Below are positions 9,955-47,959 of a stretch of 57,078 nt of DNA, one piece after another; the first letter of the stretch is position 1, and each line of letters starts with the position of its first letter. A program made the position numbers and the translations under genes. Under the pieces are notes generated by a model, which saw only the letters and a list, made by a program, of their open reading frames with translations, was not told the DNA's origin and made no database searches. Source of the DNA: Candidatus Berkelbacteria bacterium (GTDB lineage Bacteria > Patescibacteriota > UBA1384 > JACPKC01); contig JAGQLE010000020.1 in the NCBI GenBank assembly GCA_020429585.1, forward strand, positions 1-57,078, read 5' to 3'.

Positions 9955-10278
9955 ATGGTCCAAACCTATAACAAACTCATTAGAGACAAAGTTCCACAAA
10001 TTATTGAAGATTCAGGCCATTTAGCAAGTCTAAGAGTCTTAACTGAAAATGAGTTTGACCAAGCCTTGCAAGATAAATTACGCGAAGAAGTCGCTGAGTT
10101 TATCGAATCGAAGGAAGTCGAGGAACTTGCTGATATCCTAGAAGTCGTGTACTGTCTCGCTGATCGTGTTGGCCACACCCCGGAGTCGATTGAGCACTTG
10201 CGCTCAAAAAAAGCCGCCCAAAAAGGCGGTTTTCTAGAAAGGATATTCTTAATTGAAACCGAAGAAGAGGCATTCTAA
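9955..10278 (+). CDS. MazG-like / PRA-PH-like house-cleaning NTP pyrophosphatase
   Basis: YNKLIRDKVPQII ... EELADILEVVYCLA ... KKAAQKGGF. Confidence 0.7.
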   Translation: MVQTYNKLIRDKVPQIIEDSGHLASLRVLTENEFDQALQDKLREEVAEFIESKEVEELADILEVVYCLADRVGHTPESIEHLRSKKAAQKGGFLERIFLIETEEEAF

Positions 10279-10720
10279 CGTTCACGCCGCCTACCTTATC
10301 TTAAAAAAAGAGGGGAAGATACTGCTGGGCAAGCGGATTAATACCGGCTACATGGATGGTTATTTTGGTTTACCGGCCGGCCATGCAGAAGAGGGTGAGT
10401 CTCTTAGTCAGACGATGATTCGTGAGACTCAAGAAGAGATCGGCCTCTCCCTTCTTCCTGAACAGCTAAATTTTGTCTTTTTGCTACACCGCTTTAGCCT
10501 CGATAACCCGTCTCAGCAACCGGAACGGATTGATGTTTTTTACGAAGCTTTAAACTGGCAAGGCCAGATTACCAATCTAGAGCCGGAAAAATGCAGTCAA
10601 CTGACCTGGTTTAGCCCCACCGATCTACCCGTAAACACCGTACCGTATATAAAATACGCTTTGGCTAAGATTTCGAGTGGTGAAAATTACAGCGAACTGG
10701 ACTGGGATAAGCTAAGCTAA
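10253..10720 (+). CDS. NUDIX hydrolase
   Basis: Nudix box GHAEEGESLSQTMIRETQEEIGL. The start is uncertain (TTG at 10253 overlaps the upstream gene). Confidence 0.85.
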   Translation: MKPKKRHSNVHAAYLILKKEGKILLGKRINTGYMDGYFGLPAGHAEEGESLSQTMIRETQEEIGLSLLPEQLNFVFLLHRFSLDNPSQQPERIDVFYEALNWQGQITNLEPEKCSQLTWFSPTDLPVNTVPYIKYALAKISSGENYSELDWDKLS

Positions 10721-12520
10721 CTGATCAAGTTCTTGCTCGAACTGTATAATTTCTTGCTTAAGTAAATCTAGCCCCGACTGCCAAAAATCTCCTTGATTAA
10801 TATCAACGCCCATTTTTTGAGTAACTCGATAAGGATCAATCGAACCGCCGAGACTCAGAGCCTCAAGATAAGTGGGTACAAATGCCGACCCAGTTTGTCT
10901 ATACCTGGCATACAGGGCCTGTGACAATAACTCGCCAAAAGCATAGCTAAAAACATAAAAATTATAGTGGTAAAAATGTAAAACTGGCATCCACCAACTT
11001 TTATGACCATCAGTCAAGGTCAAACCTTGGCCAAACATTTTCTGAAGCCGATCTTGGAAGTATCGGTCGAATTCATCCGGACTAAGTTCGCCCTGGTCTC
11101 GTCGGTGATTAGTAATATCTAACTCAAACTGGTAAAAAGCAGTTTGGCGAAAAACTGTTGCAAACGAACTCTGAATCTTTTCTACTCGTAAATTCAATCG
11201 CTGCTTAGAATCAGTCAGTTGCTCAAACAAATAATCGTAAACTAAGCTTTCGCTAAAAACCGAGGCAATCTCCGCCGTTGCTGTCGACGGCCAAAAGTTA
11301 ACAACTGAGTTTGTCCGACTAAGATAACCGTGAATCGCATGGCCAAGTTCGTGAGCCAAAGTCGTAATGTCCCGAATCTCACCTGTAAAGTTCATAAAAA
11401 CGTACGGATGATGATTTGGACCCGTGTAGCTGCAAAAAGCACCGCCGCGTTTACCGGGACCAATCTCAGCATCGATCCAACCCTTATCAAAAAACTCCTT
11501 GGCGATTTTGGCTGCTTGACCAGAAAACTTTTCGAAAGAAGCTAAAACGATTTCCTTGGCTTGATCCCATGTATAAACTGATCTTTCGTTGGGATAGAGC
11601 GAAGAATAGCGGTCCCAATCATAAAGCTTATCTCCAACCAGCCGAGCTTTAGCCTGATAATACCTTTCGACCAGAGAATAATTTGCTTCGATTGTTTTAG
11701 TTAAGTTTTCCACCGTTTCGGGCTCGATCTCATAACCCAAAAATGTCGCCTGTTGCGGATATTTAAAACCGCGAAGTTGATCGTCAATCTTTTTATCCAG
11801 GAGTAGATTATTAAGAATATAGGCGTACAAATCACGTTGTCCAGCCAAGCCCTTTGTTAAGGCCTCCGAGCCTCTCTGGCGAGTTGCCCGGTCGGGATGG
11901 CTCTTATTTAAACTGGTCAGCTCCGCATAGCTGAGGCGCTGGGGCTGACCATCAACCTCAACTTCGTAAACTTGCTTCGAATCAGTCTGGTCATACAGCC
12001 TAACAAACGCCTGGCGACCAACTTGATTTTTTTGAACTAGAAGCTGCTCCTGATCCTCCGATAAGGAAAAAGGCTTTAAGCGCTGGCGGACCTTTAGATA
12101 ATGAGCGTAGCCTGATAAGTCAGGGTCTTTGATTAATTTATCCAAAGCTGACTCCGACAAGGCTTTAAGCGAGAGGTCGAACCAAACTAAGTCAGCATTC
12201 AGCTGAGAGCCAAATTCTTGAGTAGAGACGAATAACTTGGATCGCTCCGGATCAGTTGCTTTTTGAGCATACAAAAGGGAAGCGTAGCTCGAAATTAAAA
12301 CGGCCTGTTCAGATATTTCTTCGTACTGCCTTAGTACGAGTAGTAAATCCTTAGCGGTTATGCTGTCGCTAATCTTAGATCGCCAACCATCACTAAAGAC
12401 CCTAACCCTTTTTTCTAGATTCAAACGATCGGCTCTAAGTTTCGGATCATTAATTCCCGAGTAAAGCTCATTTAAGTCCCAGGCAATACCGTTGGCTGGT
12501 TTTGGGGTTGATTTTGACAT
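10712..12520 (-). CDS. pepF: oligoendopeptidase F (M3B metallopeptidase)
   Basis: 602 aa with the HELGH zinc motif and M3B-typical length and flanks. Confidence 0.85.
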   Translation of the reverse strand: MSKSTPKPANGIAWDLNELYSGINDPKLRADRLNLEKRVRVFSDGWRSKISDSITAKDLLLVLRQYEEISEQAVLISSYASLLYAQKATDPERSKLFVSTQEFGSQLNADLVWFDLSLKALSESALDKLIKDPDLSGYAHYLKVRQRLKPFSLSEDQEQLLVQKNQVGRQAFVRLYDQTDSKQVYEVEVDGQPQRLSYAELTSLNKSHPDRATRQRGSEALTKGLAGQRDLYAYILNNLLLDKKIDDQLRGFKYPQQATFLGYEIEPETVENLTKTIEANYSLVERYYQAKARLVGDKLYDWDRYSSLYPNERSVYTWDQAKEIVLASFEKFSGQAAKIAKEFFDKGWIDAEIGPGKRGGAFCSYTGPNHHPYVFMNFTGEIRDITTLAHELGHAIHGYLSRTNSVVNFWPSTATAEIASVFSESLVYDYLFEQLTDSKQRLNLRVEKIQSSFATVFRQTAFYQFELDITNHRRDQGELSPDEFDRYFQDRLQKMFGQGLTLTDGHKSWWMPVLHFYHYNFYVFSYAFGELLSQALYARYRQTGSAFVPTYLEALSLGGSIDPYRVTQKMGVDINQGDFWQSGLDLLKQEIIQFEQELDQLA

Positions 12521-26348: not shown

Positions 26349-26489
26349 ATACAAATACTCAAAGAACAAAGTAAAGCGTCTTAGAATCGATTCTAGAGCC
26401 TTTAAACCTGTTAATCTACTTAATCTACCTGAGAAAGACTGATCGGATTGAAGATTTAGGAAGATAGGAAGATTGGTATTAAATACAAC

Positions 26490-26513
26490 GTCGCACAATG
26501 TAAGTTGTGCGAC
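26490..26513. other. perfect 9-bp hairpin in the convergent spacer
   Basis: GTCGCACAA tgtaag TTGTGCGAC. There is no clean U-run on either strand. Confidence 0.5.
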
Positions 26514-26647
26514 ATAGATGATTCTTGATTTTAACTCTCGTGGTTTTTAAGATGCACAAGGCCAGATAAATCATCGCGTTATTTTTTTACTACTAGTATT
26601 TTTTTATAAATAACAGCAGCGGCAACTCCATCCAACCAACCAATTTC

Positions 26648-26715: not shown

Positions 26716-29487
26716 CTAATTGAGAGAAATCTCATCGCCTGAATCGAACCAACTAACGTCTTTTTTTGTTTTTTTATCAGTTGGTTTATTTAAATTATTT
26801 AAGGAGAAAGATTTATTCACGGCTGGCCTCGATTTACCTTCTTTACTTTCCGGTCTCCCCCGACCTTGTCCCCTGCCAGAGTTACCAACTCCACTCCCCT
26901 GCTTATTTTTTAACTTTTTTGAGGCATTAACTATAAAATCAGGTAAATCGGTTTTTGGTTGCGACGGTGTAGATCCAGCACCCTCTTTTTGCAACCCTTG
27001 TACTCTCCCCTGCTCCTTATCCATTGGCTCGTCGATAGATTTGCGCCACTCCTGGGCCTGCTTAAGTTGAGCGTCCTCAGTCCAATCTTTGATCTTTTTT
27101 TCAACTAATTCCCTCGGTTTTGCATACCTTTCTCTAGAAACAGCGATTATCTTTTCGATATTACCCGTTGGCTCACTCTGAGGCGGTAAAGTAACTGCTG
27201 AAAAGGCTGGTCGTGTTACACCATCGATCGCCATCTTGGTATAAATATGATGATTAGCCAAATTAACAAGATCATTAGCGGCAAAAACTGGCTCAAATTC
27301 CCTAACTAAACCGCTAGCATCACCCGGACCAACTCGAAAGCTAACGATTGTTCCGACGTTTCCAAAGATCGCGGCCGCAACTGTCTCGGGCATTTGGGCA
27401 ATATATTGATTAATCAAGGTCAAGTTTAAGTGATACTTGCGAGCCTCAGACAAAATGACTGCAAAAGAATCAGTTGCAAAGTTCTGAAACTCGTCTACGT
27501 ACAAATAAAAATCACGGCGTTCCGACTCGGCCACGTCAGCCCGCTGCATCGCCGTGAGCTGAATTTGTGTAATTAACAGCGCACCAAGTAAAGCCGAGCT
27601 ATCTTCACCTATTTTTCCAATCGACAGATCAACCAAAAAAATCTTTCCGTCATCCATTATCCTTCTAATGTCAATCGAACTCTGGGGCTGCCCCACAATA
27701 TTTCGAATCGTTGAGGCCGACAAAAACTGACCAACCTTGTTTTGAATGGGAGCAATCGCCTCCGTCCTAAACTTCGGTGTATATTGCTCGAACTCATTTG
27801 CAAAGTAATCCTTTATAACTGGATCTTGAACTTTAGCCACCACCCGCTTGCGAAAATTTTTATCTGTTAAGAGTCGGTTGATACCTAATAGGGTCGAACC
27901 TGGATACTCCAATAGGGCCAAAATTGTATTGCGCAAAATATACTCAAGACGAGGGCCCCAAGATTCTGCAAATAACTTCTTGAAAATGCCGACTACACCT
28001 GATGCGGCCACGTTTCTTAAATCTGGACTCACGCTTTCTAAAACGTTAAAACCTACCGGAAACTCTCGATCAGCTGGATTAAAATAAAGTACATCATTGA
28101 TTCGATGGGAAGGAATCTGCTCTAAAACATCACGAACTAATTGACCGTGGGGATCTACAACTGCAACACCTTTGCCTTTATAAATATCGTCGATGATCAT
28201 ATTCTGCATTAAAGTAGATTTACCCGTTCCGGTTTTGCCTAAAATATACATGTGCAACCGACGATCAATCGATTTTATCCCGAATTTATGGCGAAAATTA
28301 CGAAAATCGGTTTTGCCAAAATAAGTAACTTCGTTTTCCTCAACCTGACCTTCAAGTGGTAAATTCGACGGTGGCTCACCTTTTTTACTACCTGCCCAAG
28401 CCATATTAGGAGTTTCTACTGAGGCGGCTGGCAAATGGTAAATCGAGGCCAATTCTTCGGTATTTAAAATCAGACTTTGTCCGTAAAATTCCCGATTTTG
28501 ATACAGACTAAGTAGGTTTGATTTTTCAGGAGCAATCTCTGCCCTAAAGCCATTCATATTCGTTGTGTTAAACTGCTTGAAAGCCCCGCTTAAAGACTCA
28601 ATCTTATTGCGAGCTGTATAAGGATCACCTGCTACCGAAATAATCCTAATCTTTGTCTCAAAACCTAATTTAGTAATTTTTTCTTCGATCGCTTTTAGAG
28701 CCTGTTCCTCTGGACTCGATAGTCTAACCTCGTCTTCAGAGCTGGCTGGCGAAGACTCCCCGCCCTCATCGGCACTGCCGCCACCTGGAAAGAATATTCC
28801 CTTTAGGGCTTCTCCGATCAATGAAGTAAAGGCGGAAACTAAGCTACTAAGGAAAGGCTTGTCGTCGCCTGGCAATCGCTTTTTACTAACAAACTCTATC
28901 CCCTTTTCCTGCCAGCTTTCGGCCATGGGCTTTATGATCATTTGAAACCATAACTGATCAGTACCACCGACACTACCAAAGACTCCTGTGATCGCCGACA
29001 AAGGGTCAACTTCAAAGTTAGGAAAGGTTTTAATTGGATAATAGGGATCCTTAGTAAGAGTCAGCTCACCGGCTGCCACCGCCTGTCCAGCTAACTCAAT
29101 CCGACTATAATCTTCCACCTCGACAACCTCAATCGAGGGGTACTGGGCATAAATCTGACCCTCAACAAACTCTTTTAGGTACTTAGGAGTGTGAACATAA
29201 AAATGAATAAAGGTATTGTGGACCGCCATCTCAAAACTGACTTGATCCTGAAATAGCTGCTCGTCCCTAAAGATACCGTGCAAAGATGCAAAAAGTTGTT
29301 CAGCTGACAATGGCGTCTTCTCGTTGAGCTTAGGAGGTAAGATTTTCAGAACAACGACTTCCTGATCAGCGAGCCAAACCATGTAAGCATCATGTCGTCT
29401 TTTTTCTAAAATATTTAAAATGTAACGTCGTAAAAACCAGCCGCCAACCCCAGCAGCAACCAACAAAAACAAAATCAGGATAATCAT
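26716..29487 (-). CDS. membrane-anchored FtsK/HerA-superfamily P-loop ATPase (VirD4/TraD/DUF87-like), paralogue 2, with basic low-complexity C-terminal tail
   Basis: N-terminal TM helix. Walker A LGKTGTGKST (28216..28239), Walker B DFYLYVDEFQNF, and ILSEARKYHLNL. About 125 aa of K/R/G-rich tail. Confidence 0.7.
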   Translation of the reverse strand: MIILILFLLVAAGVGGWFLRRYILNILEKRRHDAYMVWLADQEVVVLKILPPKLNEKTPLSAEQLFASLHGIFRDEQLFQDQVSFEMAVHNTFIHFYVHTPKYLKEFVEGQIYAQYPSIEVVEVEDYSRIELAGQAVAAGELTLTKDPYYPIKTFPNFEVDPLSAITGVFGSVGGTDQLWFQMIIKPMAESWQEKGIEFVSKKRLPGDDKPFLSSLVSAFTSLIGEALKGIFFPGGGSADEGGESSPASSEDEVRLSSPEEQALKAIEEKITKLGFETKIRIISVAGDPYTARNKIESLSGAFKQFNTTNMNGFRAEIAPEKSNLLSLYQNREFYGQSLILNTEELASIYHLPAASVETPNMAWAGSKKGEPPSNLPLEGQVEENEVTYFGKTDFRNFRHKFGIKSIDRRLHMYILGKTGTGKSTLMQNMIIDDIYKGKGVAVVDPHGQLVRDVLEQIPSHRINDVLYFNPADREFPVGFNVLESVSPDLRNVAASGVVGIFKKLFAESWGPRLEYILRNTILALLEYPGSTLLGINRLLTDKNFRKRVVAKVQDPVIKDYFANEFEQYTPKFRTEAIAPIQNKVGQFLSASTIRNIVGQPQSSIDIRRIMDDGKIFLVDLSIGKIGEDSSALLGALLITQIQLTAMQRADVAESERRDFYLYVDEFQNFATDSFAVILSEARKYHLNLTLINQYIAQMPETVAAAIFGNVGTIVSFRVGPGDASGLVREFEPVFAANDLVNLANHHIYTKMAIDGVTRPAFSAVTLPPQSEPTGNIEKIIAVSRERYAKPRELVEKKIKDWTEDAQLKQAQEWRKSIDEPMDKEQGRVQGLQKEGAGSTPSQPKTDLPDFIVNASKKLKNKQGSGVGNSGRGQGRGRPESKEGKSRPAVNKSFSLNNLNKPTDKKTKKDVSWFDSGDEISLN

Positions 29488-31958
29488 TAACCGTTCCCTT
29501 CTCGACTTGGTGGCAACTCCTGAATAGGACTTGGGTCAGTAGCAGGTCCTCGCGCTAACATTTCCTGTTCTACCAACTGCTTGTCTTGACCGTATTTAAG
29601 GCGTGACAGCTGCTTGATCGCCTCTGCCAAATCCTTGTTCGGCTCCTGCTCAACTTTAATCGTTCGCATAGAAAAAGGATTGCTAGGCGTGCCGTCAATC
29701 AAAAGCTTTATATAGGTGTTGGCAAAATTTAAGTTAACCAAGTCATTCTGGGTTAAATTTGGAAATTCTTTAGACATAAACTCAGCATCAGCCGCACCGA
29801 TCCTAAAACTAATCAGGGTCCCAGCGTTACCGATAACCGCATCGCGAATATCTTCTGGCAGCTGGGCAATATATTGATTGGTGATGTTAAGATTTAATCT
29901 ATATTTTCGAGCTTCGGATAAGATTGTCTTAAATGTGTCGGTCGTAAAGTTTTGAAACTCATCGACATATAAATAGAAATCCTTGCGCTCTTCTTCGGGG
30001 GTATCAGCCCGCTGAAAAGCTGCAACTTGAATTTTACTGACTAAAATCATGCCCAAAAGGTAAGAATTGGTCTCACCGATTCGACCTTTTGACAGGTTGA
30101 TCAAAAATATCTTACCCGAATCCATTATTTCTCTAATATCGAAGCCGGATTTAGTTTGACCGATCACGTTTCTAATCAAGTCGTTAGTCATAAAGCGACC
30201 AAACTTAGAGATAAAATAGTTATACATCTCCGATTTATGAAAATCTGCTGTCTTAGCCATTTGCTGATTCCAAAAGGCCAACACTACCGGATCGGTAACG
30301 TGACTAACAGTTTCATCACGGAAAGCATCATCGGTAAAAAGGCGTGGGATATCTAACAAAGTCCCTCCCTCCGGTCGCGACATAACTGACAAGGAAGCAT
30401 TGCGGCCCCAGTGTTCAAATTGAGGTCCCACCATACCAGTTCGATTAGGATCAAAAAGTTTGTAAAAAATTTCTAGCCATTCAGCAACCAAGAAATCCCG
30501 GTCTTCAGGCCGCTTCCACTCGAGCATATTTAGTCCGATCGGTCGCTCCGCATCACTAGGATTAAAATAAACTACGTCTTCAGCTCGCTCTTTAGGAATC
30601 AAGGTTAAAATTTCCTCGATCGCATCACCGTTAGGATCGATATAGCACACTCCCCGACCGGCCTTAATGTCCTGTTCGATCTGATGAATAAATAGTGTAG
30701 TTTTACCGACGCCGGTTTTACCAATGGCATATAGATGACGACGACGGTCATCCTGTTTAATATTTACCGCTTGCTCCTCACCCCTGAAGACGCTTTTGCC
30801 GAGCTTGACCGCACCCGAATCATCGACTGGTAAATTTGCCGGTGGCGGTAAAGTTCGGGCAGCGAGCCATTCAATATTTGGAGTCTCAACAAAATGGTTA
30901 GGAATATGATAAATCGAGGCCAGCTCTTCGGTATTCAAGATTGATTTATTGCCTCGAAACCTTCGGAGAATAAAATCGGAAGTAAATTGCTTGATATCTC
31001 CTGAACCAACTCTAGTAAAGAGGTTTGATTCTGGAGAGGTATACTGGGCAAAGGCTGAAACAATGTTATCGACCGCAATTCGACTTTCCTGAATAGAATT
31101 AGGACTGACGACAATTAATCTAACCTGGGTTTCGAAACCTACCTTACTCCCCTTTTGCTGAATATCTTTCATTGTCTCTTCCTGGATTGGAGTTAAGCGG
31201 ACGGGTTTTTCTTCGTCCTGATTAGAAGTCGACCCAGGACGGACAAGCTTGATTAGCTCTTGAGCGACCAAGCCAATAAAACTCTTTTTTACATCCTTGC
31301 CCTCGGCAATATTTTTAGCCGCCGCCGAGACCTTTTGGCGCCAATCGCCCGAAGTTGGCCTAATCACAATCTGATAGCCAGCCGTCATCCCCTGCCCTAA
31401 CTTGCCAAAGGAGTTGGTAATCGCATTTAACGGATCACTTTCTAATTTTTGGTAAGTCTTAATTGGAAATTCGAATGTTTTCTTGGTTTTTAAGTAGACC
31501 CCGTAAGGAAAGGATTTTTCTCCAAAAATCCTAAATTCCTGAGATGGTTCGATTTGGGCGTACGGGTAATAGCTGTGCAATTGTCGCTCAACCAGGGTTT
31601 GTAACTTTTTCGGACAAGTAATATAAAAACTAATTAAACCCTTTTTAACTGCAAACTCTAGGGAGATTTGGTCTTGACCAAATAGGCTTCGATTTATGCT
31701 CGACTCATATAGCGAGGAAAAGCTAGCCAGGAATTGTTCGGCAATCGACATTTGCTCGCGCCAATCCTTGGGCTTATCACCCTCTTCAACTTCCTCTTCT
31801 TTTGGCACTAACACTTTAAGCACCACTAAATCTTGAGCTGTAGCTATTGCCCTTGTATCCAACTGACGTCGATACCAAAGCAAGCCGAATATTCCCCCGA
31901 CAACTAAAACTACAAAAACAATAATTAAAATTGGCAAAGAAGCTCCATTTTTAACCAA
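29487..31958 (-). CDS. membrane-anchored FtsK/HerA-superfamily P-loop ATPase (VirD4/TraD/DUF87-like), paralogue 1
   Basis: N-terminal TM helix. Walker A IGKTGVGKTT (30699..30722), Walker B DFYLYVDEFQNF, and ILSEARKYRLNL. Its stop overlaps the start of paralogue 2 (TAATG). Confidence 0.7.
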   Translation of the reverse strand: MVKNGASLPILIIVFVVLVVGGIFGLLWYRRQLDTRAIATAQDLVVLKVLVPKEEEVEEGDKPKDWREQMSIAEQFLASFSSLYESSINRSLFGQDQISLEFAVKKGLISFYITCPKKLQTLVERQLHSYYPYAQIEPSQEFRIFGEKSFPYGVYLKTKKTFEFPIKTYQKLESDPLNAITNSFGKLGQGMTAGYQIVIRPTSGDWRQKVSAAAKNIAEGKDVKKSFIGLVAQELIKLVRPGSTSNQDEEKPVRLTPIQEETMKDIQQKGSKVGFETQVRLIVVSPNSIQESRIAVDNIVSAFAQYTSPESNLFTRVGSGDIKQFTSDFILRRFRGNKSILNTEELASIYHIPNHFVETPNIEWLAARTLPPPANLPVDDSGAVKLGKSVFRGEEQAVNIKQDDRRRHLYAIGKTGVGKTTLFIHQIEQDIKAGRGVCYIDPNGDAIEEILTLIPKERAEDVVYFNPSDAERPIGLNMLEWKRPEDRDFLVAEWLEIFYKLFDPNRTGMVGPQFEHWGRNASLSVMSRPEGGTLLDIPRLFTDDAFRDETVSHVTDPVVLAFWNQQMAKTADFHKSEMYNYFISKFGRFMTNDLIRNVIGQTKSGFDIREIMDSGKIFLINLSKGRIGETNSYLLGMILVSKIQVAAFQRADTPEEERKDFYLYVDEFQNFTTDTFKTILSEARKYRLNLNITNQYIAQLPEDIRDAVIGNAGTLISFRIGAADAEFMSKEFPNLTQNDLVNLNFANTYIKLLIDGTPSNPFSMRTIKVEQEPNKDLAEAIKQLSRLKYGQDKQLVEQEMLARGPATDPSPIQELPPSREGNG

Positions 31959-31991: not shown

Positions 31992-32309
31992 TTACCCAAC
32001 AATATTTTCTAGCCCAGCAGCGTTGAGCGAACCGTCATCATTAGTAATCAATTTCGGAATTTCTACCTCACTTACCTGAGGAGCAGATTTAACCGGAATT
32101 TTTTGACTTGTTGTATTTGCTACTTGGTTAAGATCAGGAATTTCTGCCATTGTCTGCTCTTGAACAGACAATGACTTAAGCTCAGGTGGATTTACCTGTA
32201 CTTGCTGCTCGACTTTTTCACGTTCAATTGTTTCAGGTGATCTTAAATCAAGATGCTCCGCTTGAGATTGAAAATTCTGACTAGAACCTGGGGTCTTTAA
32301 ATCACTCAT
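31992..32309 (-). CDS. hypothetical acidic, probably disordered protein (105 aa)
   Basis: The ORF overlaps the tgt stop by 8 nt and lies 33 nt upstream of ATPase paralogue 1. It has no hydrophobic segment and is rich in Q/E/S/P. Confidence 0.45.
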   Translation of the reverse strand: MSDLKTPGSSQNFQSQAEHLDLRSPETIEREKVEQQVQVNPPELKSLSVQEQTMAEIPDLNQVANTTSQKIPVKSAPQVSEVEIPKLITNDDGSLNAAGLENIVG

Positions 32310-38713: not shown

Positions 38714-39673
38714 TTAGCTAACAATTAGATCAGCCAAGGTAGTAGTTGCCTGCTTCTTGCGAAGCAAGTAACGGCCAGTACCACCAGCCAAGGTAGCTAA
38801 AGAAGCTAATAGAGCGATGGTATCAGCACCGGTCTTAGGAAGCTCCTTAGGTAAATCCTTATTGGAGGTTTCTACTTGAGCAATAACCTTTGAACTCTTA
38901 GACACATTTTGAGTCTGAGTTACAGTTTCGTTATTACCACCATTATTCTGGTTAACAGTAGCGGTTTGATTACCACTAGCAGTACAACTGCCAGAAGCAT
39001 CGCCGTCACCAGTGTTTACAACTGTATTAGTACAGTCGACATTCTGTGACTGGGAAATACTTGAGTTATTATTCTCGTTATTTCCGTTACCGTTACCGCC
39101 AGAAAGGTTAGACTGGTTAACAGTCGCTTCCTGATTACCAGCAGCAGCACAACTACCAGCCGCATCGCCTGAGCCAGTGTTTACAACTGTATTAGTACAG
39201 TCGACATTCTGACTCTGAGAAAGGCTTGAGTTGTTGTTTTGGTTAACGTTTTCTCCACCATTACTGGTAGAAGTGTTAGTACTAGTGTTACTAGTACCGT
39301 TATTAACCTGAGTATTGTTTGCCTGATTTGTTTCAGATCCCTGTTCGCCAGTTGAGGTACTAGTTCCGGTAGCATTACCTTCGCCAGTATTAACAACTAC
39401 GTTAGTAGCGTTAACATTTTGGGCCTGAGAAGTAGCAGCATTGTTGTTCTGATTAGTGTTGCTTGACGTACTTTCGTACGAATTAACGTTGGAGTTGGTA
39501 TTGGTATTCTCGACGGTATTAGAATTAGAGTTAGAAACATAATTTGAGTTAGTGTTACTGACTCCGTTCATGTAATCCATGCCGTAATCATTCCAATCCC
39601 AAGCGTAAGCAACGCTTGATGATCCAGCTGTTACCATCAAGGCAGTCACAAGCATAGTTGCGAATTTTTGCAT
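38714..39673 (-). CDS. LPXTG-anchored, Asn/Ser/Thr-rich repetitive surface protein
   Basis: Signal peptide MQKFATMLVTALMVTAGSSSVAYA. Three repeats of about 42 aa. C-terminal LPKTG plus the hydrophobic stretch ADTIALLASLATLAGGTG plus RYLLRKKQ. Confidence 0.75.
   Translation of the reverse strand: MQKFATMLVTALMVTAGSSSVAYAWDWNDYGMDYMNGVSNTNSNYVSNSNSNTVENTNTNSNVNSYESTSSNTNQNNNAATSQAQNVNATNVVVNTGEGNATGTSTSTGEQGSETNQANNTQVNNGTSNTSTNTSTSNGGENVNQNNNSSLSQSQNVDCTNTVVNTGSGDAAGSCAAAGNQEATVNQSNLSGGNGNGNNENNNSSISQSQNVDCTNTVVNTGDGDASGSCTASGNQTATVNQNNGGNNETVTQTQNVSKSSKVIAQVETSNKDLPKELPKTGADTIALLASLATLAGGTGRYLLRKKQATTTLADLIVS
38948..39448 (-). repeat. three tandem coding repeats (about 42 aa each), copies 2 and 3 near-identical at DNA level
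   Basis: NNN(A/S)(A/S).SQ(A/S)QNV..TN.VVNTG.G.A.G....G.Q....NQ. Copies 2 and 3 each carry two Cys (QNVDCTN...GSC). Confidence 0.8.
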
Positions 39674-39790
39674 AAGATATCACCCACTTTCTTAGGTTGC
39701 ATTTTTCGCTAGTATCGACTCCGCCCCACTGGCGGATTAGCGACCTCTCCATAAACTTTTACTTTCCCAAAGCCAATTTTTTAGCTTCAG

Positions 39791-39829
39791 GAAGAAAAAG
39801 TGGAGGTTGCGTCCGTAGACGCAACCTCC
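39791..39829 (-). terminator. Rho-independent terminator after the 302-aa secreted-protein gene
   Basis: Perfect 12-bp stem GGAGGTTGCGTC/GACGCAACCTCC with a tetraloop, followed on the minus strand by ACTTTTTCTTC. Confidence 0.8.
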
Positions 39830-39886
39830 TGGCGGATGACCCCTCAGTCAACCTTGCGGCCCAGAGCCGAAGCTCCGGACCTAATT

Positions 39887-40795
39887 TTATATACCGTTGT
39901 TTTGGTCGACCCCGGCGCCTTGTTGGCCAGTGCCGGTTGCCGAACCATCAACGTTGCCACTACCGGTGTTAATCAGAACGTTAACCGGAGTCACGTTCTG
40001 AGCCTGAGAGGTGGCGTTGTTGTTGTTTTGGTTGTTGTTAAAATTGGCGTTGTTATTGGTGTTCTCATTGACATTCGAAACGGTGTTCGAATTGTCCAAT
40101 GAGATCTTATTGCCGTTTTTAACAGCGGTAACTTGTCGGACGTTTACGACCGGCGGTTTTTGATTTTGATGGAAACCGATCTGGAAACTTGAAAAGTTTC
40201 CACCGATATTCCGTACTCCTCCCCCAGTCGACAAAACGCTAACTGGCGGCGCTTCCGCCCGCTGAAAAGTCGGTGGCGGCGGTTGGTAAGTTGGTGGCGG
40301 CGGTTGGTAAGTTGGTGGCGGCGTTTTTAGCCAGGTTACCTTGAGCCGCGACAGATTGCCGCAGCGCTTAGGCAAAACCCAGGTTATCACCTTGGTCGCA
40401 TTGCCCTCAGTTACCTGAACCTCAAATGCCCAAGCCTCCTGCGTCGAACCGGTTGCCAACTGAGGCGTGTACAAGGTTCTAACTTGAGAACCGTCGTACC
40501 ACCCCATCGTCTGCAAAACGATTCCATGCGGTAAACCACCTGGAACATCCTGAACAGCCCCGGACTGCAAAATTTGCAACACCGCCTGGGCAACGTCGTC
40601 ACGATGACCGGCCTGCTTAACGGCAGCCAGAATCAAATCTGGCCTGCTATTTGCAGCCCTCTGCAAGTTTTCTACCGACCAGACCGGCCCCAAAAGCGGG
40701 GCAACGCCGATCGTTCTTACAATTTGCCCCTGTGCGGCCAAAACCGGCCAAGGCAAACTAAAGAGAAACACTAATATGAGAGCGATTCGTCTCAT
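39887..40795 (-). CDS. secreted protein with Pro-rich linker and C-terminal Asn-rich repeat module
   Basis: Signal peptide MRRIALILVFLFSLPWPVLAA. PPPTYQPPPPTYQPPPPTFQ linker. The C-terminal NNNNATSQAQNVTPVNVLINTGSGN is homologous to the repeats of the LPXTG protein. Confidence 0.6.
   Translation of the reverse strand: MRRIALILVFLFSLPWPVLAAQGQIVRTIGVAPLLGPVWSVENLQRAANSRPDLILAAVKQAGHRDDVAQAVLQILQSGAVQDVPGGLPHGIVLQTMGWYDGSQVRTLYTPQLATGSTQEAWAFEVQVTEGNATKVITWVLPKRCGNLSRLKVTWLKTPPPTYQPPPPTYQPPPPTFQRAEAPPVSVLSTGGGVRNIGGNFSSFQIGFHQNQKPPVVNVRQVTAVKNGNKISLDNSNTVSNVNENTNNNANFNNNQNNNNATSQAQNVTPVNVLINTGSGNVDGSATGTGQQGAGVDQNNGI
40272..40323 (-). repeat. 21-bp perfect tandem repeat, about 2.5 copies, coding
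   Basis: GGTGGCGGCGGTTGGTAAGTT x2, then GGTGGCGGCG. It encodes the (P)PPPTYQ repeats. Confidence 0.9.
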
Positions 40796-41853
40796 TTCCC
40801 ACCTCTTCCTACCTGAATAAGCTTAAACCTCACGGCACCATCAGGTACCAAGGTCTTACTGTAGCCTTGGTTGTAGTTGTCCGGGGCAAACTGCCATTGT
40901 TGGTCGGCTTGCTCAACAAGGATCCTTACCTCCCCCGAGGGGATATTGTCAAATGCTGCCAAATCAGTTCCGGATGAAGACATCCTCGAAACGACCTGGC
41001 CGTTGACTTCAACGATAACATCAGGATTGCCACCCATATAGGGGGCTCCATTGGCTTTATTGAAGTTAACGCATACCCGACCGGATCCGGTCTGAGCTTC
41101 TGGCCGTTGGTAACTGCAATCACTGGCCTCAGCTTGCTGGCTCGGCGGATCGTTTACTTTTAAGATCCGAACCGGCGGCGCTTCGCCCGTGGCTGACTTG
41201 ACGATAAAGTGACCATCACTAGTCTCCATATTCGTCATGTACTTGTACAGTTCCAGATGCTCAGCCGTGTAACCCTTGTTAGGGTTAACCAAGTTGAGCA
41301 CAAAGCCATCTTCGGCATCGATTTCCCGCTTTCGACGAAAACGAAAGATCAAAACCTGAGTCGTGGCTTCGCCTCCCATATGTTTAAGCTGATAATCGAT
41401 AAAATGACGGCCAGCGGGCAAACTTGAGAGGTCGAGTAAGTAGCCACCGAGATCCTCCCGGCGGTCCACCATACCCAAACCGTCAGCGGTTTGGACAGTG
41501 ATGTTCTCGTGGGTGATCTCGTCTGCATTAATCGCAAAAAACGAAACCACCACCCAGCATTTGCCGTTGGGATTACTAGGTGAATAACGGGGCAACGTGA
41601 TCTCTGCCAGGTTAGAAGCCTGGTAAAAATCCGGTCCGCCGTCTTTAGCCCAGCGGTCTTCTCTGGTTGGAGCGTGACCATCAGGAGTGTAGTAAAACTC
41701 CACATTGTGGTTACCACTCGTTCCAGCCGGCTTGACAGTGTCGTAGGTAGACACGCTGCCTGCGACGTTGGCCAAACTTTGGGCCGATACTGGCGTTGAT
41801 GCGATCATGACCGCAAACATCACCAGTGCGGCTACATTTAGGTTTCGTTTCAT
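40792..41853 (-). CDS. secreted hypothetical protein (353 aa)
   Basis: Signal peptide MKRNLNVAALVMFAVMIASTPVSA. Strong GGAGGAGG RBS. ATGA overlap with the downstream gene. Confidence 0.6.
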   Translation of the reverse strand: MKRNLNVAALVMFAVMIASTPVSAQSLANVAGSVSTYDTVKPAGTSGNHNVEFYYTPDGHAPTREDRWAKDGGPDFYQASNLAEITLPRYSPSNPNGKCWVVVSFFAINADEITHENITVQTADGLGMVDRREDLGGYLLDLSSLPAGRHFIDYQLKHMGGEATTQVLIFRFRRKREIDAEDGFVLNLVNPNKGYTAEHLELYKYMTNMETSDGHFIVKSATGEAPPVRILKVNDPPSQQAEASDCSYQRPEAQTGSGRVCVNFNKANGAPYMGGNPDVIVEVNGQVVSRMSSSGTDLAAFDNIPSGEVRILVEQADQQWQFAPDNYNQGYSKTLVPDGAVRFKLIQVGRGGK

Positions 41854-44227: not shown

Positions 44228-44836
44228 CTAAACCAGACTTTGCCTGCCCTCGATTGCCCTGGTTAAGGTAACAGCGTCGGCATATTCCAAGTCGCCGCCA
44301 ACCGGCAAACCATGAGCAATTCGAGAAACTTTAACCTTGATATTTTGCTCATCAAACTGCTGGCTCAAATACAGAGCAGTTGCCTCCCCTTCCATCGTAG
44401 GATTAGTCGCAATAATTACTTCAGTTATAGCAGGACTGTTTTTAAGACGAGTAAATAACGGCTTAATGTTTAAGTTGTCTGGACCAATCCCATCAATTGG
44501 CGAAATTGAACCACCCAAAATATGATAACGGCCATTATACTCAGTCCTTTCTAAGGCAACAGCATCAAGCGGCTGCTCAACCACGCAAATAATATGATTA
44601 TCCCTGCCTTGATCATCACATACCACGCAAGGGTCACTATCGGCGATGTTGCAGCAATTAGCACAAAAAATCAACGATCCGTGCAGACTCGTTAGTGCTT
44701 CCCCTAGCTGCTGACTGGTTGACTGATGCTGGCGAATCAAATGAAAAACTAAGCGGCTCGCGGATTTAGGTCCAATTCCTGGCAATTTAGAGAACTCTTC
44801 AATCGCCTTTTCAACCGACTTCGGCAACAGCTTCAT
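44228..44836 (-). CDS. recR: recombination protein RecR
   Basis: LPGIGPKSASRL HhH motif, a C4 zinc finger and a Toprim domain. Confidence 0.9.
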   Translation of the reverse strand: MKLLPKSVEKAIEEFSKLPGIGPKSASRLVFHLIRQHQSTSQQLGEALTSLHGSLIFCANCCNIADSDPCVVCDDQGRDNHIICVVEQPLDAVALERTEYNGRYHILGGSISPIDGIGPDNLNIKPLFTRLKNSPAITEVIIATNPTMEGEATALYLSQQFDEQNIKVKVSRIAHGLPVGGDLEYADAVTLTRAIEGRQSLV

Positions 44837-46809
44837 TTATCTTCCTGTTTTTCCTTCTTTTTGGTCGGATCGTCCCAAGTTGCGTGTTTGCATTTAGGAT
44901 AACGCTCGCAACCCCAAAAAGTTTTACCCCGGCGTGTTTTACGCTCGATCAACTGTCCTTCGCCGCACTCCGGACAAGTAATACCGGTTTTCTTAATAAT
45001 TGGTTCGGTATGTTTACAATCAGGAAAACCCGTGCAAGCCAAAAACTTACCATAACGGCCTGGCCTAATTACCATTGGCTTGCCGCACTCCGGACAAACT
45101 TTGTCTGTTTTCTCGGTTAGGTCAAGCTTTGGCACCTCGTCAGTCTTTTTTTCTACTAACTTATGAAATGGCTTGTAAAAATCTCCGAGCAATTTAGTCC
45201 AGTCCTCTTTTCCTTCGGCCACTTTATCCAGACCTTCTTCCATCTCAGCCGTAAAATCCAAGTCGACAATTTCCGGAAAATGTTTAACCAAAATGCCATT
45301 AACGTTCTGACCAGTTTCAGTGGGATGAAAACGTCGCTCAATTAACTCCACATAACCGCGATCTTGGATTGTCGACAGGGTTGGTGCATAGGTACTTGGA
45401 CGGCCAATTCCATGCTCCTCAAGCGCCTTTACTAAGCTAGCCTCGGAATATCTTGGAGGCGGCTCGGTAAAGTGCTGCTCGCCGACTAAATCATCCAAGT
45501 TAACCTGCTCGCCTTGTTTAAGAGCAGGCAAAATCTTGTCTTCGCGAGCAGTCGGCCAAACTTTTAAAAAGCCTTCAAAATCTACAACGTTACCCGTCGC
45601 CTTAAATACGCCCTCTCCTTTAGCGCTTTTAACTAAGACTGTCTCAGCCTTAAGGCGCGCCGGACTCATCTGAGAAGCCACCATCCTCTGCCAAATAAGC
45701 CGATATAACTTGGTATGCTTTTCCGACTTTAAGTTTAGTTTCTCTGGCAGAGATTCCACATGGGTCGGCCTAATCGCCTCATGGGCCTCCTGAGCACCTT
45801 TACTCTTAGTTTTGTAGTAGTTGGGCTTGTCCGGCAAGTAACCCTGACCATACTCCTTTTCCACTAGGCTACGAGCCGCCTTAAGTGCCTCGTCGGCCAA
45901 GTTGACTGAATCTGTTCTCATATAGGTAATGTGGCCGTCTTCGTATAAATCTTGTGCCAACTTCATTGTTTGTTTAGCCGAAAAGTGGAGTCGGTGCGCT
46001 GCCTGCTGTTGCAAAGTTGAGGTTGTAAAAGGCGGCGAGGGTCGTTTTTGCCGCTCCTTTTTTTCGATTGAATCTACTCTATACTCCAAATCCTTAAGAC
46101 TGGTTTCGATTTTTTTAGCTTCGGTTTCAGTTTTTACTGTCATCTTCTCAATCTTCTGTCCCTTAAACTCAACCAAGCTGGCCAAAAAATCATCCGAGCC
46201 TCTAAGGAACTTACCATCAAGCGACCAATATTCCTCGGGCTTAAAGGCCTTTATTTCGTTTTCCCGGTCAACAATAAGTCGAACTGCCACTGACTGAACC
46301 CGACCAGCCGACAATCCTTTCATAACCTTCTTCCACAAAAACGGACTAAGTGTATAACCAACAAGTCGGTCTAAAATCCGACGAGCCTGCTGCGCATTAA
46401 TTAAATCGTAGTCGAGGTCACGCGGCTTCTTAACCGCTTCCTCAAGCGCTTTCTTTGTGATTTCGTGAAAGGTAATCCGACGCACTGACTTACCCTTAGC
46501 TAATTTTAAGGACTCTAAAACATGCCAGGCAATTGCCTCCCCCTCGCGATCGTAGTCAGTTGCCAGAAAGATGTCGTCAGCGGCAGCAGCGGCTTTTTTA
46601 AGGGCGGAAACTGTTTTTTTAGCCTTAGCAGGCACTAAATAATCCGGTGTAAAACTTCCATCATCGGTTTCTACACCCATCTTACTCTTCGGTAAATCAC
46701 GAACGTGACCATAGGAAGCTAAGACCTGATAGTCCTTACCCAAATAACGTTCAATTGTCTTACCCTTGGCGGGCGACTCAACAATAACTAAATGCTTTTT
46801 TGCCATCAA
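44833..46809 (-). CDS. topA: DNA topoisomerase I (type IA) with C-terminal zinc ribbons
   Basis: LVIVESPAKGKTI, ITYMRTDS and two CPECG...C..C ribbons. Confidence 0.9.
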   Translation of the reverse strand: MMAKKHLVIVESPAKGKTIERYLGKDYQVLASYGHVRDLPKSKMGVETDDGSFTPDYLVPAKAKKTVSALKKAAAAADDIFLATDYDREGEAIAWHVLESLKLAKGKSVRRITFHEITKKALEEAVKKPRDLDYDLINAQQARRILDRLVGYTLSPFLWKKVMKGLSAGRVQSVAVRLIVDRENEIKAFKPEEYWSLDGKFLRGSDDFLASLVEFKGQKIEKMTVKTETEAKKIETSLKDLEYRVDSIEKKERQKRPSPPFTTSTLQQQAAHRLHFSAKQTMKLAQDLYEDGHITYMRTDSVNLADEALKAARSLVEKEYGQGYLPDKPNYYKTKSKGAQEAHEAIRPTHVESLPEKLNLKSEKHTKLYRLIWQRMVASQMSPARLKAETVLVKSAKGEGVFKATGNVVDFEGFLKVWPTAREDKILPALKQGEQVNLDDLVGEQHFTEPPPRYSEASLVKALEEHGIGRPSTYAPTLSTIQDRGYVELIERRFHPTETGQNVNGILVKHFPEIVDLDFTAEMEEGLDKVAEGKEDWTKLLGDFYKPFHKLVEKKTDEVPKLDLTEKTDKVCPECGKPMVIRPGRYGKFLACTGFPDCKHTEPIIKKTGITCPECGEGQLIERKTRRGKTFWGCERYPKCKHATWDDPTKKKEKQEDK

Positions 46810-46876
46810 TATTTTTATTTAATCCCAATACCTAAGTTAAAGACGAGTTTATCATTATATAAGCACCACGTCTAAA

Positions 46877-47959
46877 CTAACCAACCAGGACGAATTGATT
46901 ATTACCTAAATTTCTCACTCGCCCCTTCATCTCCATCAGAGTTAAAGTACTACTGATAGCTGCTGGGTCAAGATCTATTTGGTCCGCTAAAACCTCAAAC
47001 GAAATCGGCTCAGTGGTTAAAAGCTTAAGGATTAGCGCCTCTTCTTTAGAATCAGCTATTGATTCCCTCGCCCTCTTTTGCGTCTTTGATTTTTCTAACC
47101 CAAGCTCAAGTAAAATATCCTCCACTCGGTGAACCAACTTGGCACCCATTTTAATTAAAAAATGAGGTCCAGCCGAACCAGCGGAATAAATAGAACCAGG
47201 AACTGCAAATACATCCCTATTTTCTTCTAAGGCAGAACGAGCGGTAATCAACGAGCCGGATTTTTCTTCGGCCTCAATCACTATTGTTCCCAAGCTCAAT
47301 CCAGCAATCACCCGGTTCCTAATAGGAAAGTGATGGCGCAGGCTCTGGGTTCCAGGAGGGAATTCACTAACAACGGCACCATTGTTGACAATACTTAAAC
47401 CAAGGTTGTAATGGCTTGCAGGATACAAACGGTCAGCTCCACCTGCAAGCACTGCCACCGTCTTTCCTCCAGCTTCAATACTTGCCCGATGTGCCATACC
47501 ATCCACTCCGAGCGCCATTCCGGAAGCAATTACTATGCCCTCAGCTGCCAATTTTGTAGCCAAATCAACCGTAACCCGCTGACCGTAAGTTGAGATCTTT
47601 CTATTGCCAACAATTGAAACATACGGGCCTACTGGCAAGTCCCCTCTTACGTATAATCCGACCGGAGGAGTATTAATCTTCTTAAGCAACTCAGGATACT
47701 CTGGGTCAAAAATTGCCAAGTATTTAATCCCTGATTTACCCAACGTTCGCAAAATGTCTTTGTCAAAGTTGTTCTTGGTTTGTCGCAGAGCATCTCTAAC
47801 TGGTTTAGTGAAATTAAAATTATTTATTAAACGTTCGTGTTTTAGATAACTATCTAAGCCCGACTGGAGTAAAATATGCAAAGTCTTGGGCCCGATTCTC
47901 AAGTCCGATTGAAGGTTGGCTAAAATTATACGGTCTTCATCTCTTGACCTCAATAACAC
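46877..47959 (-). CDS. dprA: DNA processing protein DprA (Smf)
   Basis: VSIVGNRKISTYG, IASGMALGVDG.AHR and FPIRNRVIAGL. Confidence 0.9.
   Translation of the reverse strand: MLLRSRDEDRIILANLQSDLRIGPKTLHILLQSGLDSYLKHERLINNFNFTKPVRDALRQTKNNFDKDILRTLGKSGIKYLAIFDPEYPELLKKINTPPVGLYVRGDLPVGPYVSIVGNRKISTYGQRVTVDLATKLAAEGIVIASGMALGVDGMAHRASIEAGGKTVAVLAGGADRLYPASHYNLGLSIVNNGAVVSEFPPGTQSLRHHFPIRNRVIAGLSLGTIVIEAEEKSGSLITARSALEENRDVFAVPGSIYSAGSAGPHFLIKMGAKLVHRVEDILLELGLEKSKTQKRARESIADSKEEALILKLLTTEPISFEVLADQIDLDPAAISSTLTLMEMKGRVRNLGNNQFVLVG

Follow-up and report, generated by a model that had tools for sequence, protein, structure and literature searches.

What do two adjacent genes for membrane-anchored ATPases do on a stretch of chromosome that offers them no secretion system? 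We examined this question in a contig of 57,078 nucleotides (JAGQLE010000020.1, assembly GCA_020429585.1; "the window" below means this whole stretch) from a Candidatus Berkelbacteria bacterium, where two minus-strand genes, here called A and B, lie near tgt and secDF. Patescibacteria, to which this organism belongs, account for a large part of the diversity of bacteria, and they live on host cells to which they attach. Our results show that A and B represent two old paralogue types of a vertically inherited, Patescibacteria-wide family, and that the pair in the window is a juxtaposition of these ancient paralogues typical of Berkelbacteria. Each protein combines one membrane helix, a predicted cytoplasmic domain that very likely belongs to DUF8128 and is modelled with a VirB4-like fold, and a TrwB/VirD4-type motor. 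As the most economical role, we infer that such proteins are the missing coupling-type ATPases of the chromosomal type IV secretion system (T4SS) of Patescibacteria.

Results

Genes A and B

The original prediction, made from the letters of the stretch, described two minus-strand open reading frames (ORFs) of 823 and 923 amino acids (aa) with a one-nucleotide overlap, and they are present exactly as claimed:

29487..31958, minus strand: gene A, 823 aa, TTG start; A-type paralogue with membrane helix, very probable DUF8128 domain, and TrwB/VirD4-like ATPase with all-alpha domain
26716..29487, minus strand: gene B, 923 aa, ATG start; B-type paralogue with the architecture of A and a 123-aa disordered C-terminal tail
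29485..29489, minus strand: TAATG junction, one base of which belongs both to A's stop codon and to B's start codon (context GGT TAATG ATT)

The same one-nucleotide overlap (spacing of -1) was seen in two relatives' loci, L001 and L008. That the two proteins are paralogous over their full length was borne out by BLASTP, which aligned them end to end over 824 columns, 38% of them identical and 57% positive (E = 0). The motif strings quoted in support of that claim were all found in A and B. Both ORFs are intact, with all motifs present. Of 89 family members, at least 95% share the residue at each of 106 positions, which include Walker A and Walker B; both proteins retain these residues apart from three exceptions, all conservative (I362M, V598I, and N631S). 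The public NCBI annotation of the contig gives gene B as only 562 aa (the C-terminal 61%), which leaves out the membrane helix and DUF8128; the 923-aa ORF is uninterrupted and is full-length in relatives.

A hydropathy scan agreed with the proposal of a single N-terminal hydrophobic helix per protein and found no hydrophobic segment beyond the extreme N terminus of either A or B. Basic residues follow the helix in both proteins, so the remainder is predicted to be cytoplasmic. In the AlphaFold model of A, the N terminus forms a long helix spanning residues 7-42.

31872..31937, minus strand: membrane helix of A at about aa 8-29, with RRQLDTR next (Kyte-Doolittle 19-residue maximum of 3.0 at residue 10)
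29431-29487, minus strand: membrane helix of B, aa 1-19

DUF8128 and its predicted fold

The N-terminal domain had been called uncharacterised, with a novel substrate or partner domain put forward as a hypothesis. It does have a family: precomputed matches to PF26449 (DUF8128) cover the N-terminal region of all close homologues of A and B. Our copy of Pfam predates PF26449, and A and B were assigned to the family through these homologues rather than by direct scoring; from these matches, the N-terminal domains of both very likely belong to DUF8128.

30804..31841, minus strand: DUF8128 (PF26449) domain of A, about aa 40-385, with a predicted fold like that of the VirB4 N-terminal domain
28333..29364, minus strand: DUF8128 domain of B, about aa 42-385

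Structure prediction gave confident single-chain models for the N-terminal domain of A and for B, with structural matches to VirB4 and TrwB. For residues 1-391 of A (36 sequences), AlphaFold reached a predicted local distance difference test (pLDDT) of 88.7 and a predicted template modelling score (pTM) of 0.85. When this model was compared with the PDB by Foldseek, the top 14 matches were all TrwK, the VirB4 of R388 (E 3e-8 to 4e-6, probability 1.00), and the next match followed at an E-value of 5e-3. No TrwB or HerA chain appeared in this list, and the match is therefore to the VirB4 N-terminal domain, which TrwB and HerA are without. For residues 1-805 of B (130 sequences; pLDDT 92.0, pTM 0.71), the best match by E-value was again TrwK/VirB4, over about 900 columns (E 5e-15). 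An alignment of that length implies that B and TrwK/VirB4 are collinear along both proteins, which supports an N-domain-to-N-domain match. After TrwK/VirB4 and TrwB, the model of B matched DotL, Cag-beta, and HerA (4D2I, E 3e-13). The TM (template modelling) scores of the N-terminal domain were modest (0.42). Judging from these models, a VirB4-N-domain-like predicted fold for DUF8128 is well supported, and homology between the two domains is probable.

DUF8128 also occurs apart from the motor. At locus L082 (10001-13027), the two halves are split genes, with DUF8128 in a 435-aa protein followed by an ATPase of 571 aa that has a C-terminal zinc-finger match. DUF8128-only paralogues were found at L023 and L039, and the DUF8128 profile search returned many forms of 410-460 aa. 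In the complete Peribacteria genome CP060226 (L077:~10000-12442), the A-type frame is broken once, into 379 and 445 aa; a genuine split, a fault of the assembly, and a recoded stop are all possible causes.

The motor halves

Profile searches, proposed along with the original prediction, returned type IV coupling protein (T4CP) families on the C-terminal halves.

29559..30776, minus strand: ATPase half of A, about aa 395-800
30699-30722, minus strand: Walker A of A, GKTGVGKT, aa 413-420
29946-29981, minus strand: Walker B of A, DFYLYVDEFQNF, aa 660-671
27088..28305, minus strand: ATPase half of B, about aa 395-800
28216-28239, minus strand: Walker A of B, GKTGTGKS, aa 417-424
About aa 488-598 of B: all-alpha insertion, helices in the AlphaFold model

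All Pfam matches (T4SS-DNA_transf, TraG-D_C, TrwB_AAD_bind, and DUF87) were confined to these halves, in A to residues 398-736 only, and the first three of these families scored at or near their gathering cut-offs. NCBIfam likewise matched the C-terminal halves only, with SXT_TraD and the CD1115-type VirD4 near their cut-offs, together with weak matches to CedD and HerA. Pfam FtsK_SpoIIIE reached an E-value of 0.0056 over 22 residues in B and did not match A. TrwB was the sole solved structure reached when the PDB was searched with the sequences of A and B. Compared with TrwB, the C-terminal half of the B model gave a template modelling (TM) score of 0.65 (normalised to TrwB length) at a root-mean-square deviation (rmsd) of 4.5 A, and the match spans about 410 of 420 residues, the all-alpha domain (488-598) included. 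The Pfam and NCBIfam matches together with the TrwB structure match support the VirD4/TrwB-like motor of the FtsK/HerA superfamily that had been read from the sequence.

Distribution and the two paralogue types

A pattern scan of one genome per species found a relative in at least 583 genomes; among the matches listed, all were from Patescibacteria, which also go by the name candidate phyla radiation (CPR), and their lineages were Berkel-, Sacchari-, Falkow-, Magasanik-, Uhr-, Curtiss-, Davies-, Gottesman-, Levy-, Peregrini-, and Peribacteria. The titles of some metagenome-assembled genomes from binchicken co-assemblies (L010-L080: "uncultured Gammaproteobacteria," "Pseudomonadales," "Saccharibacteria") are evidently placeholder labels and unreliable as taxonomy. 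A profile of the N-terminal domain, compared with 1.84 billion representatives, matched 5,370 clusters at 50% identity, and 3,353 of these reached E <= 1e-10.

The single local copy of most CPR lineages shares 41-57% identity with A, and the second gene of Berkelbacteria and close relatives shares 49-68% with B. Since A is closer to the copies of other lineages than to B (38%), the duplication is not recent. Gene order was compared across 84 relatives' loci; L083 was left out as a fragmented, frameshift-ridden assembly. At the A locus most CPR lineages have the A-type gene only, and the tandem layout is that of Berkelbacteria and close relatives. Whether the pair is conserved and always tandem had been posed as a check on the original prediction: the pair does recur in Berkelbacteria and their kin, but it is not always tandem, and mostly the A-type gene stands alone. 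Where both genes are present, three layouts were seen: A-c1-c11-B (L002-L013), A-c1-B (L005, L012, and the complete genome CP011213, L084), and the direct A-B overlap (the window, L001, and L008).

In the layouts above, c1 is an uncharacterised protein of 170-207 aa that lies immediately downstream of the A-type gene in 36 loci from many CPR lineages (for example, L017:5420-6043 and L084:9486-10001). Its N terminus forms a helix, and its C-terminal part, which is conserved and rich in beta structure, contains the invariant motif NYxSKSKL..GD..KLT. Upstream of the A-type gene lies a small unknown protein, which is c2 in ABY1-like loci, c7 or c53 in Gottesman-, Davies-, and Curtissbacteria, and a disordered ORF in Berkelbacteria. 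The proteins c7 and c53 are homologous (hhalign probability 96%), and c2 has no detectable relation to them; c1, c2, and c7 gave no match in Pfam, NCBIfam, PADLOC, or a sequence search of the PDB. Farther downstream of the A-type gene there are often SWIB and dnaX, or else divIC with an XerC/D-type recombinase; dnaX comes after A in ABY1-type loci, and the XerC/D-type recombinase and DivIC do so in Gottesman- and Daviesbacteria. The B-type gene adjoins secDF and is preceded by c11, which has about 345 aa and combines sigma-70 region 4 with HARE-HTH (L004:12817-13857, L082:8956-9984). Neither c1, c2, nor c11 is present on the 57-kb contig.

The surroundings of the family genes consist of housekeeping genes or unknowns. 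Across the 84 loci, no T4SS, relaxase, integrase, phage, or defence partner gene was found near them, and no VirB4-like or other related ATPase within 10 kb, the sensitivity for divergent Patescibacteria VirB4 being uncertain. A relative inside a canonical conjugative T4SS, an element of the integrative and conjugative type (ICE), or a prophage had been named as the observation that would make the pair an ordinary remnant; all 84 loci instead have core-gene surroundings. Synteny with the ribosomal-protein genes, tgt, and secDF is kept across species, including a complete Berkelbacteria genome.

Probable counterparts in Southlakia epibionticum

The family has been met before under another description. 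Quinonero-Coronel et al. (2025, PMC12102498) counted 5,713 VirD4-type T4CP homologues, spread over 2,918 of 3,035 genomes of Patescibacteria at about two each, and their Table S3 includes one genome in which genes 83 and 85 are such homologues, with VirB3 and VirB6 encoded far away. In S. epibionticum, the essential T4SS cluster has no recognisable coupling protein or relaxase (Wang et al. 2023, PMC10633639). The same genome encodes SEML1_0293, of 921 aa with T4CP Pfam domains at 402-719, which was non-essential by transposon sequencing (Tn-seq) and is preceded by SEML1_0294, an essential sigma70-r4/HARE-HTH gene (PMC10633639). The Pfam domains of SEML1_0293 are placed as in B, with the same type of gene upstream, and SEML1_0293 plus SEML1_0294 is a B-type module. 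A second gene, SEML1_0142, encodes 1019 aa annotated with a "TraM recognition domain," with a P-loop at 381-800 and an unassigned N-terminal 310 aa; it is essential and is preceded by an essential 139-aa ORF (PMC10633639). Its domain layout is that of the family, and it is probably the A-type gene. Both SEML1_0142 and SEML1_0293 are flagged as "core" and "Patescibacteria-enriched" (PMC10633639). These two probable A/B counterparts lie about 140 kb apart. The genome also encodes a canonical FtsK, SEML1_0096, which is essential and comprises 4TM, alpha, motor, and gamma domains; comEC is dispensable (PMC10633639).

The C-terminal tail of B

B-type relatives have a long, variable, disordered C-terminal tail.

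26719..27087, minus strand: disordered tail of B, aa 801-923, recognised by composition, pI (isoelectric point) 9.5, ending in ...SWFDSGDEISLN

Within their final 30 aa, 53 of 118 B-type relatives (among P0038-P0157) have the pattern [GDP][DEQ]x[IVL]x[IFLV], GDEISL in B, versus 3 of 472 control windows, the pattern having been picked after inspection of the data. The motif may serve as a docking peptide. That B-type proteins in general have a basic, RGG-like tail for binding nucleic acid was ruled out by the median pI of 5.4 over 70 tails.

Setting in the window

The contig is an ordinary piece of chromosome, with genes for ribosomal proteins L1, L10, and L7/L12, tgt, secD and secF, and glycogen-type enzymes, as well as cysS, ileS, topA, dprA, prfA, ftsW, and a UvrD-type helicase. 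On one strand, tgt, a 105-aa ORF, A, and B follow one another with overlaps or short gaps. A and B sit in a core-gene operon, rplJL-tgt-orf105-A-B, and not in a mobile element.

31992..32309, minus strand: low-complexity ORF of 105 aa between tgt and A, with a high content of Q, E, P, and V, overlapping the end of tgt by 8 nucleotides (nt)
26488..26515, minus strand: terminator-like hairpin (stem of 11 bp) in the gap between the convergent genes B and secF, 200 nt downstream of B

The 105-aa ORF is probably in the same transcription unit as its neighbours. At its position, relatives have poorly conserved, unrelated-looking disordered ORFs that share at most a short C-terminal ending like ...LN...L..(I/L)VG. 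The hairpin came from a consensus scan in which the regional count of such sites was not above shuffled expectation.

Profile searches of the 57-kb contig agreed with the statement that it holds no VirB4, relaxase, integrase, or phage gene. A hidden Markov model built from Agrobacterium-type VirB4 also found nothing in the window or in the relatives' loci, its sensitivity for divergent Patescibacteria VirB4 being uncertain. The absence of partner secretion genes holds only locally, on the contig and at the 84 loci; Patescibacteria usually have a chromosomal T4SS elsewhere. Two further observations concern other parts of the window. The reported dprA was confirmed by Pfam (DNA_processg_A and DprA_WH); it lies directly upstream of topA (44833-47959, minus strand), 15 kb from A and B, with no link to them. 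Three successive ORFs at 38714-41853 (minus strand), of 319, 302, and 353 aa, had no Pfam match at E <= 1e-5.

Discussion

How might such proteins work? In R388, VirB4 molecules contact each other in the dimer through their N-terminal domains, which also bind VirB3 and VirB8. In the same way, DUF8128 could pair A with B and attach them to a T4SS, acting as a docking and oligomerisation module. In the mechanism we propose, A and B would each form a ring ATPase tethered to the inner membrane face, as TrwB and VirB4 do, and would attach to the chromosomal, non-conjugative Patescibacteria T4SS, which is encoded elsewhere and has no coupling protein from its own cluster. Their ATP hydrolysis may then feed or energise substrate transport, with the A type as the core motor and the B type as an accessory, dispensable partner. 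A heteromer of A and B is a plausible idea.

We would put the chances of this whole reading, A/B motors docking on a separately encoded T4SS, at about even. In its favour we count the predicted architecture, the catalytic residues kept in both copies, the wide spread in CPR genomes with housekeeping neighbours, the number of T4CP homologues per genome (about two), the essentiality of SEML1_0142, which it shares with the T4SS genes, the dispensable SEML1_0293, and the T4SS cluster that comes without a coupling protein; in favour of a paired or modular use of DUF8128 we count the split genes of L082 and the DUF8128-only paralogues. Several points weigh against it. The likeness of DUF8128 to VirB4 is structural only, with a TM of about 0.42 and an rmsd of about 9 A, from alignments reported without target coordinates. 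An hhalign comparison of DUF8128 with Agrobacterium VirB4, alone and with aligned relatives, gave no signal, a weak negative because the VirB4 alignment was low in diversity (64-99% identity), and Pfam CagE_TrbE_VirB (PF03135) matched neither A nor B. A sequence-level link between the two N-terminal domains was dropped on this hhalign result. The present analysis gave no sign of an A-B interaction, and the assignment of SEML1_0142 to the A type is probable, made by domain layout, annotation, and gene context rather than by sequence comparison. The conserved neighbours are also non-secretory (small unknowns, dnaX, xerC/D-like genes, divIC, and sigma70-r4/HARE-HTH). Finally, only 148 of the 5,713 T4CP homologues lie near virB4 (97% are far from it), and VirB4 itself is found in 2,417 of 3,035 genomes, fewer than the 2,918 with T4CP homologues (PMC12102498).

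The last two counts are also what a T4SS-independent, exapted translocase would lead one to expect, that is, a motor that moves DNA, RNA, or protein across or along its own membrane with the c1, c2/c7, and HARE-HTH proteins as partners. Exaptation of the Patescibacteria T4CP homologues "cannot be ruled out" according to the authors who catalogued them (PMC12102498). The family occurs in about 500 more genomes than VirB4, it forms conserved pairs with unknowns (c1 downstream of A at 36 loci, c2 or c7/c53 upstream), sigma70-r4/HARE-HTH stands upstream of B in Berkelbacteria-like loci, L082, and S. epibionticum, DNA-related neighbours recur (dnaX, SWIB, xerC/D-like), and at the 84 loci no related ATPase lies within 10 kb. 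Yet no membrane channel partner is found beside the genes, T4CP genes are often away from virB4 in ordinary systems too, genome incompleteness may explain part of the difference between 2,918 and 2,417, and a VirB4-like N-terminal domain is known only as a module of the T4SS inner-membrane complex. We regard this alternative as possible and rather unlikely; it stays close because of the phyletic excess over VirB4 and the non-secretory neighbourhoods. A bolder version, which we think improbable, would make the family a third, Patescibacteria-specific branch beside VirB4 and VirD4, with the N-terminal domain of the VirB4 type retained on a VirD4-type motor, in which A with B, or A with a DUF8128-only protein, forms paired VirB4-style rings for an essential transport independent of both Com and the canonical T4SS. 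An example would be the uptake of host-derived nucleic acid or another macromolecule by biosynthetically deficient epibionts. The dispensable comEC and the essential, probable A-type gene of S. epibionticum are cited for such a Com-independent route; the same two facts speak against a role in Com-type DNA uptake, which had been raised from dprA, recR, and a type IV pilus block reported for the window and which we do not favour.

Membership in the FtsK/HerA superfamily, the membrane anchor, and the order of A with an XerC/D-type recombinase and DivIC in Gottesman- and Daviesbacteria, or with dnaX in ABY1-type loci, would suit an FtsK-like motor for chromosome segregation or dimer resolution at the division site. 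We consider this very unlikely, as S. epibionticum has its canonical essential FtsK in addition to both family members, the FtsK_SpoIIIE match is weak, A and B are without a gamma domain, and TrwB and VirB4 are their nearest structures. Replacement of FtsK in particular was rejected, given that separate FtsK and the lack of an FtsK signature in A and B. We give hardly any credence to a decayed conjugative element, ICE, or prophage remnant, or to an anti-phage defence ATPase, even though the closest named families are conjugative coupling proteins and PADLOC matched its mad8 and HerA models weakly. Both ORFs are intact with all motifs, core-gene synteny is kept across species, the family is phylum-wide and flagged "core" and "Patescibacteria-enriched," and integrase, relaxase, phage, and defence partner genes are absent. 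The mobile-element remnant was rejected on the conserved core-gene synteny, which includes the complete Berkelbacteria genome, and a defence system because the PADLOC matches are to the generic P-loop only.

The T4SS of Patescibacteria is, to our knowledge, the sole T4SS shown to be essential for the cell that carries it, and S. epibionticum is the only genetically tractable Patescibacteria species we know of. About 96% of Patescibacteria genomes contain the A/B family, as a rule with two copies, of which one is apparently essential in S. epibionticum. Reading DUF8128 as a VirB4-like docking domain would explain a T4SS cluster without a coupling protein, and it offers a testable idea of where the ATPases sit and how the paralogues might pair; the architecture also bears on the divergence of the VirB4 and VirD4 ATPases. 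The family as such is already known, having been catalogued as orphan T4CP homologues, and the window adds one more pair. For the window itself the result is modest, a typical Berkelbacteria instance of a catalogued family. Set against the literature searched, in which DUF8128 is not mentioned, the VirB4-like DUF8128, the A/B split with its distinct partners and essentiality, and the split and domain-only forms appear undescribed.

Comparison with known systems

The Patescibacteria "T4CP homologues" (PMC12102498) and SEML1_0293/SEML1_0142 (PMC10633639) belong to the same family as A and B. The N-terminal domain, the A/B split, the partner genes, and the tandem overlap are not described in these two papers; the first discusses only the non-essential S. 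epibionticum copy, and Table S1 of the second lists the other, essential one, SEML1_0142. With HerA, FtsK, and the archaeal Ced system, A and B share the ASCE P-loop superfamily, a likeness limited to the motor core. Unlike them, A and B lack a HAS-barrel, the 4TM, alpha, and gamma domains of FtsK, and a nuclease partner, and the weak PADLOC matches to mad8 and HerA came without partner genes.

The likeness to T4CPs (VirD4, TrwB, TraD, and DotL) lies in the C-terminal 400 aa, a P-loop nucleotide-binding domain with an inserted all-alpha domain, and in the N-terminal membrane anchor. In canonical T4CPs, however, a pair of N-terminal membrane helices, with a short loop outside, leads straight into the motor, whereas A and B have one helix and then a 350-aa predicted cytoplasmic DUF8128 domain. 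The A/B family is also unlinked to a relaxase, and to virB4 in 97% of published cases, and it normally has two paralogues per genome.

From VirB4, as represented by TrwK of R388 (PDB 7O42, 7O43, and 8RTD), A and B differ in having no sequence-level similarity to VirB4 or CagE_TrbE_VirB and a motor nearer that of T4CPs, with the T4CP all-alpha domain. They have a membrane helix of their own, while VirB4 relies on VirB3, and they are not encoded with VirB3, VirB6, or VirB8. What they share with VirB4 is the overall plan: an N-terminal domain of about 400 aa followed by a RecA-like ATPase, a similar total size, and the existence of proteins made of the N-terminal domain only, such as TrsD beside VirB4 and the DUF8128-only proteins of the A/B family.

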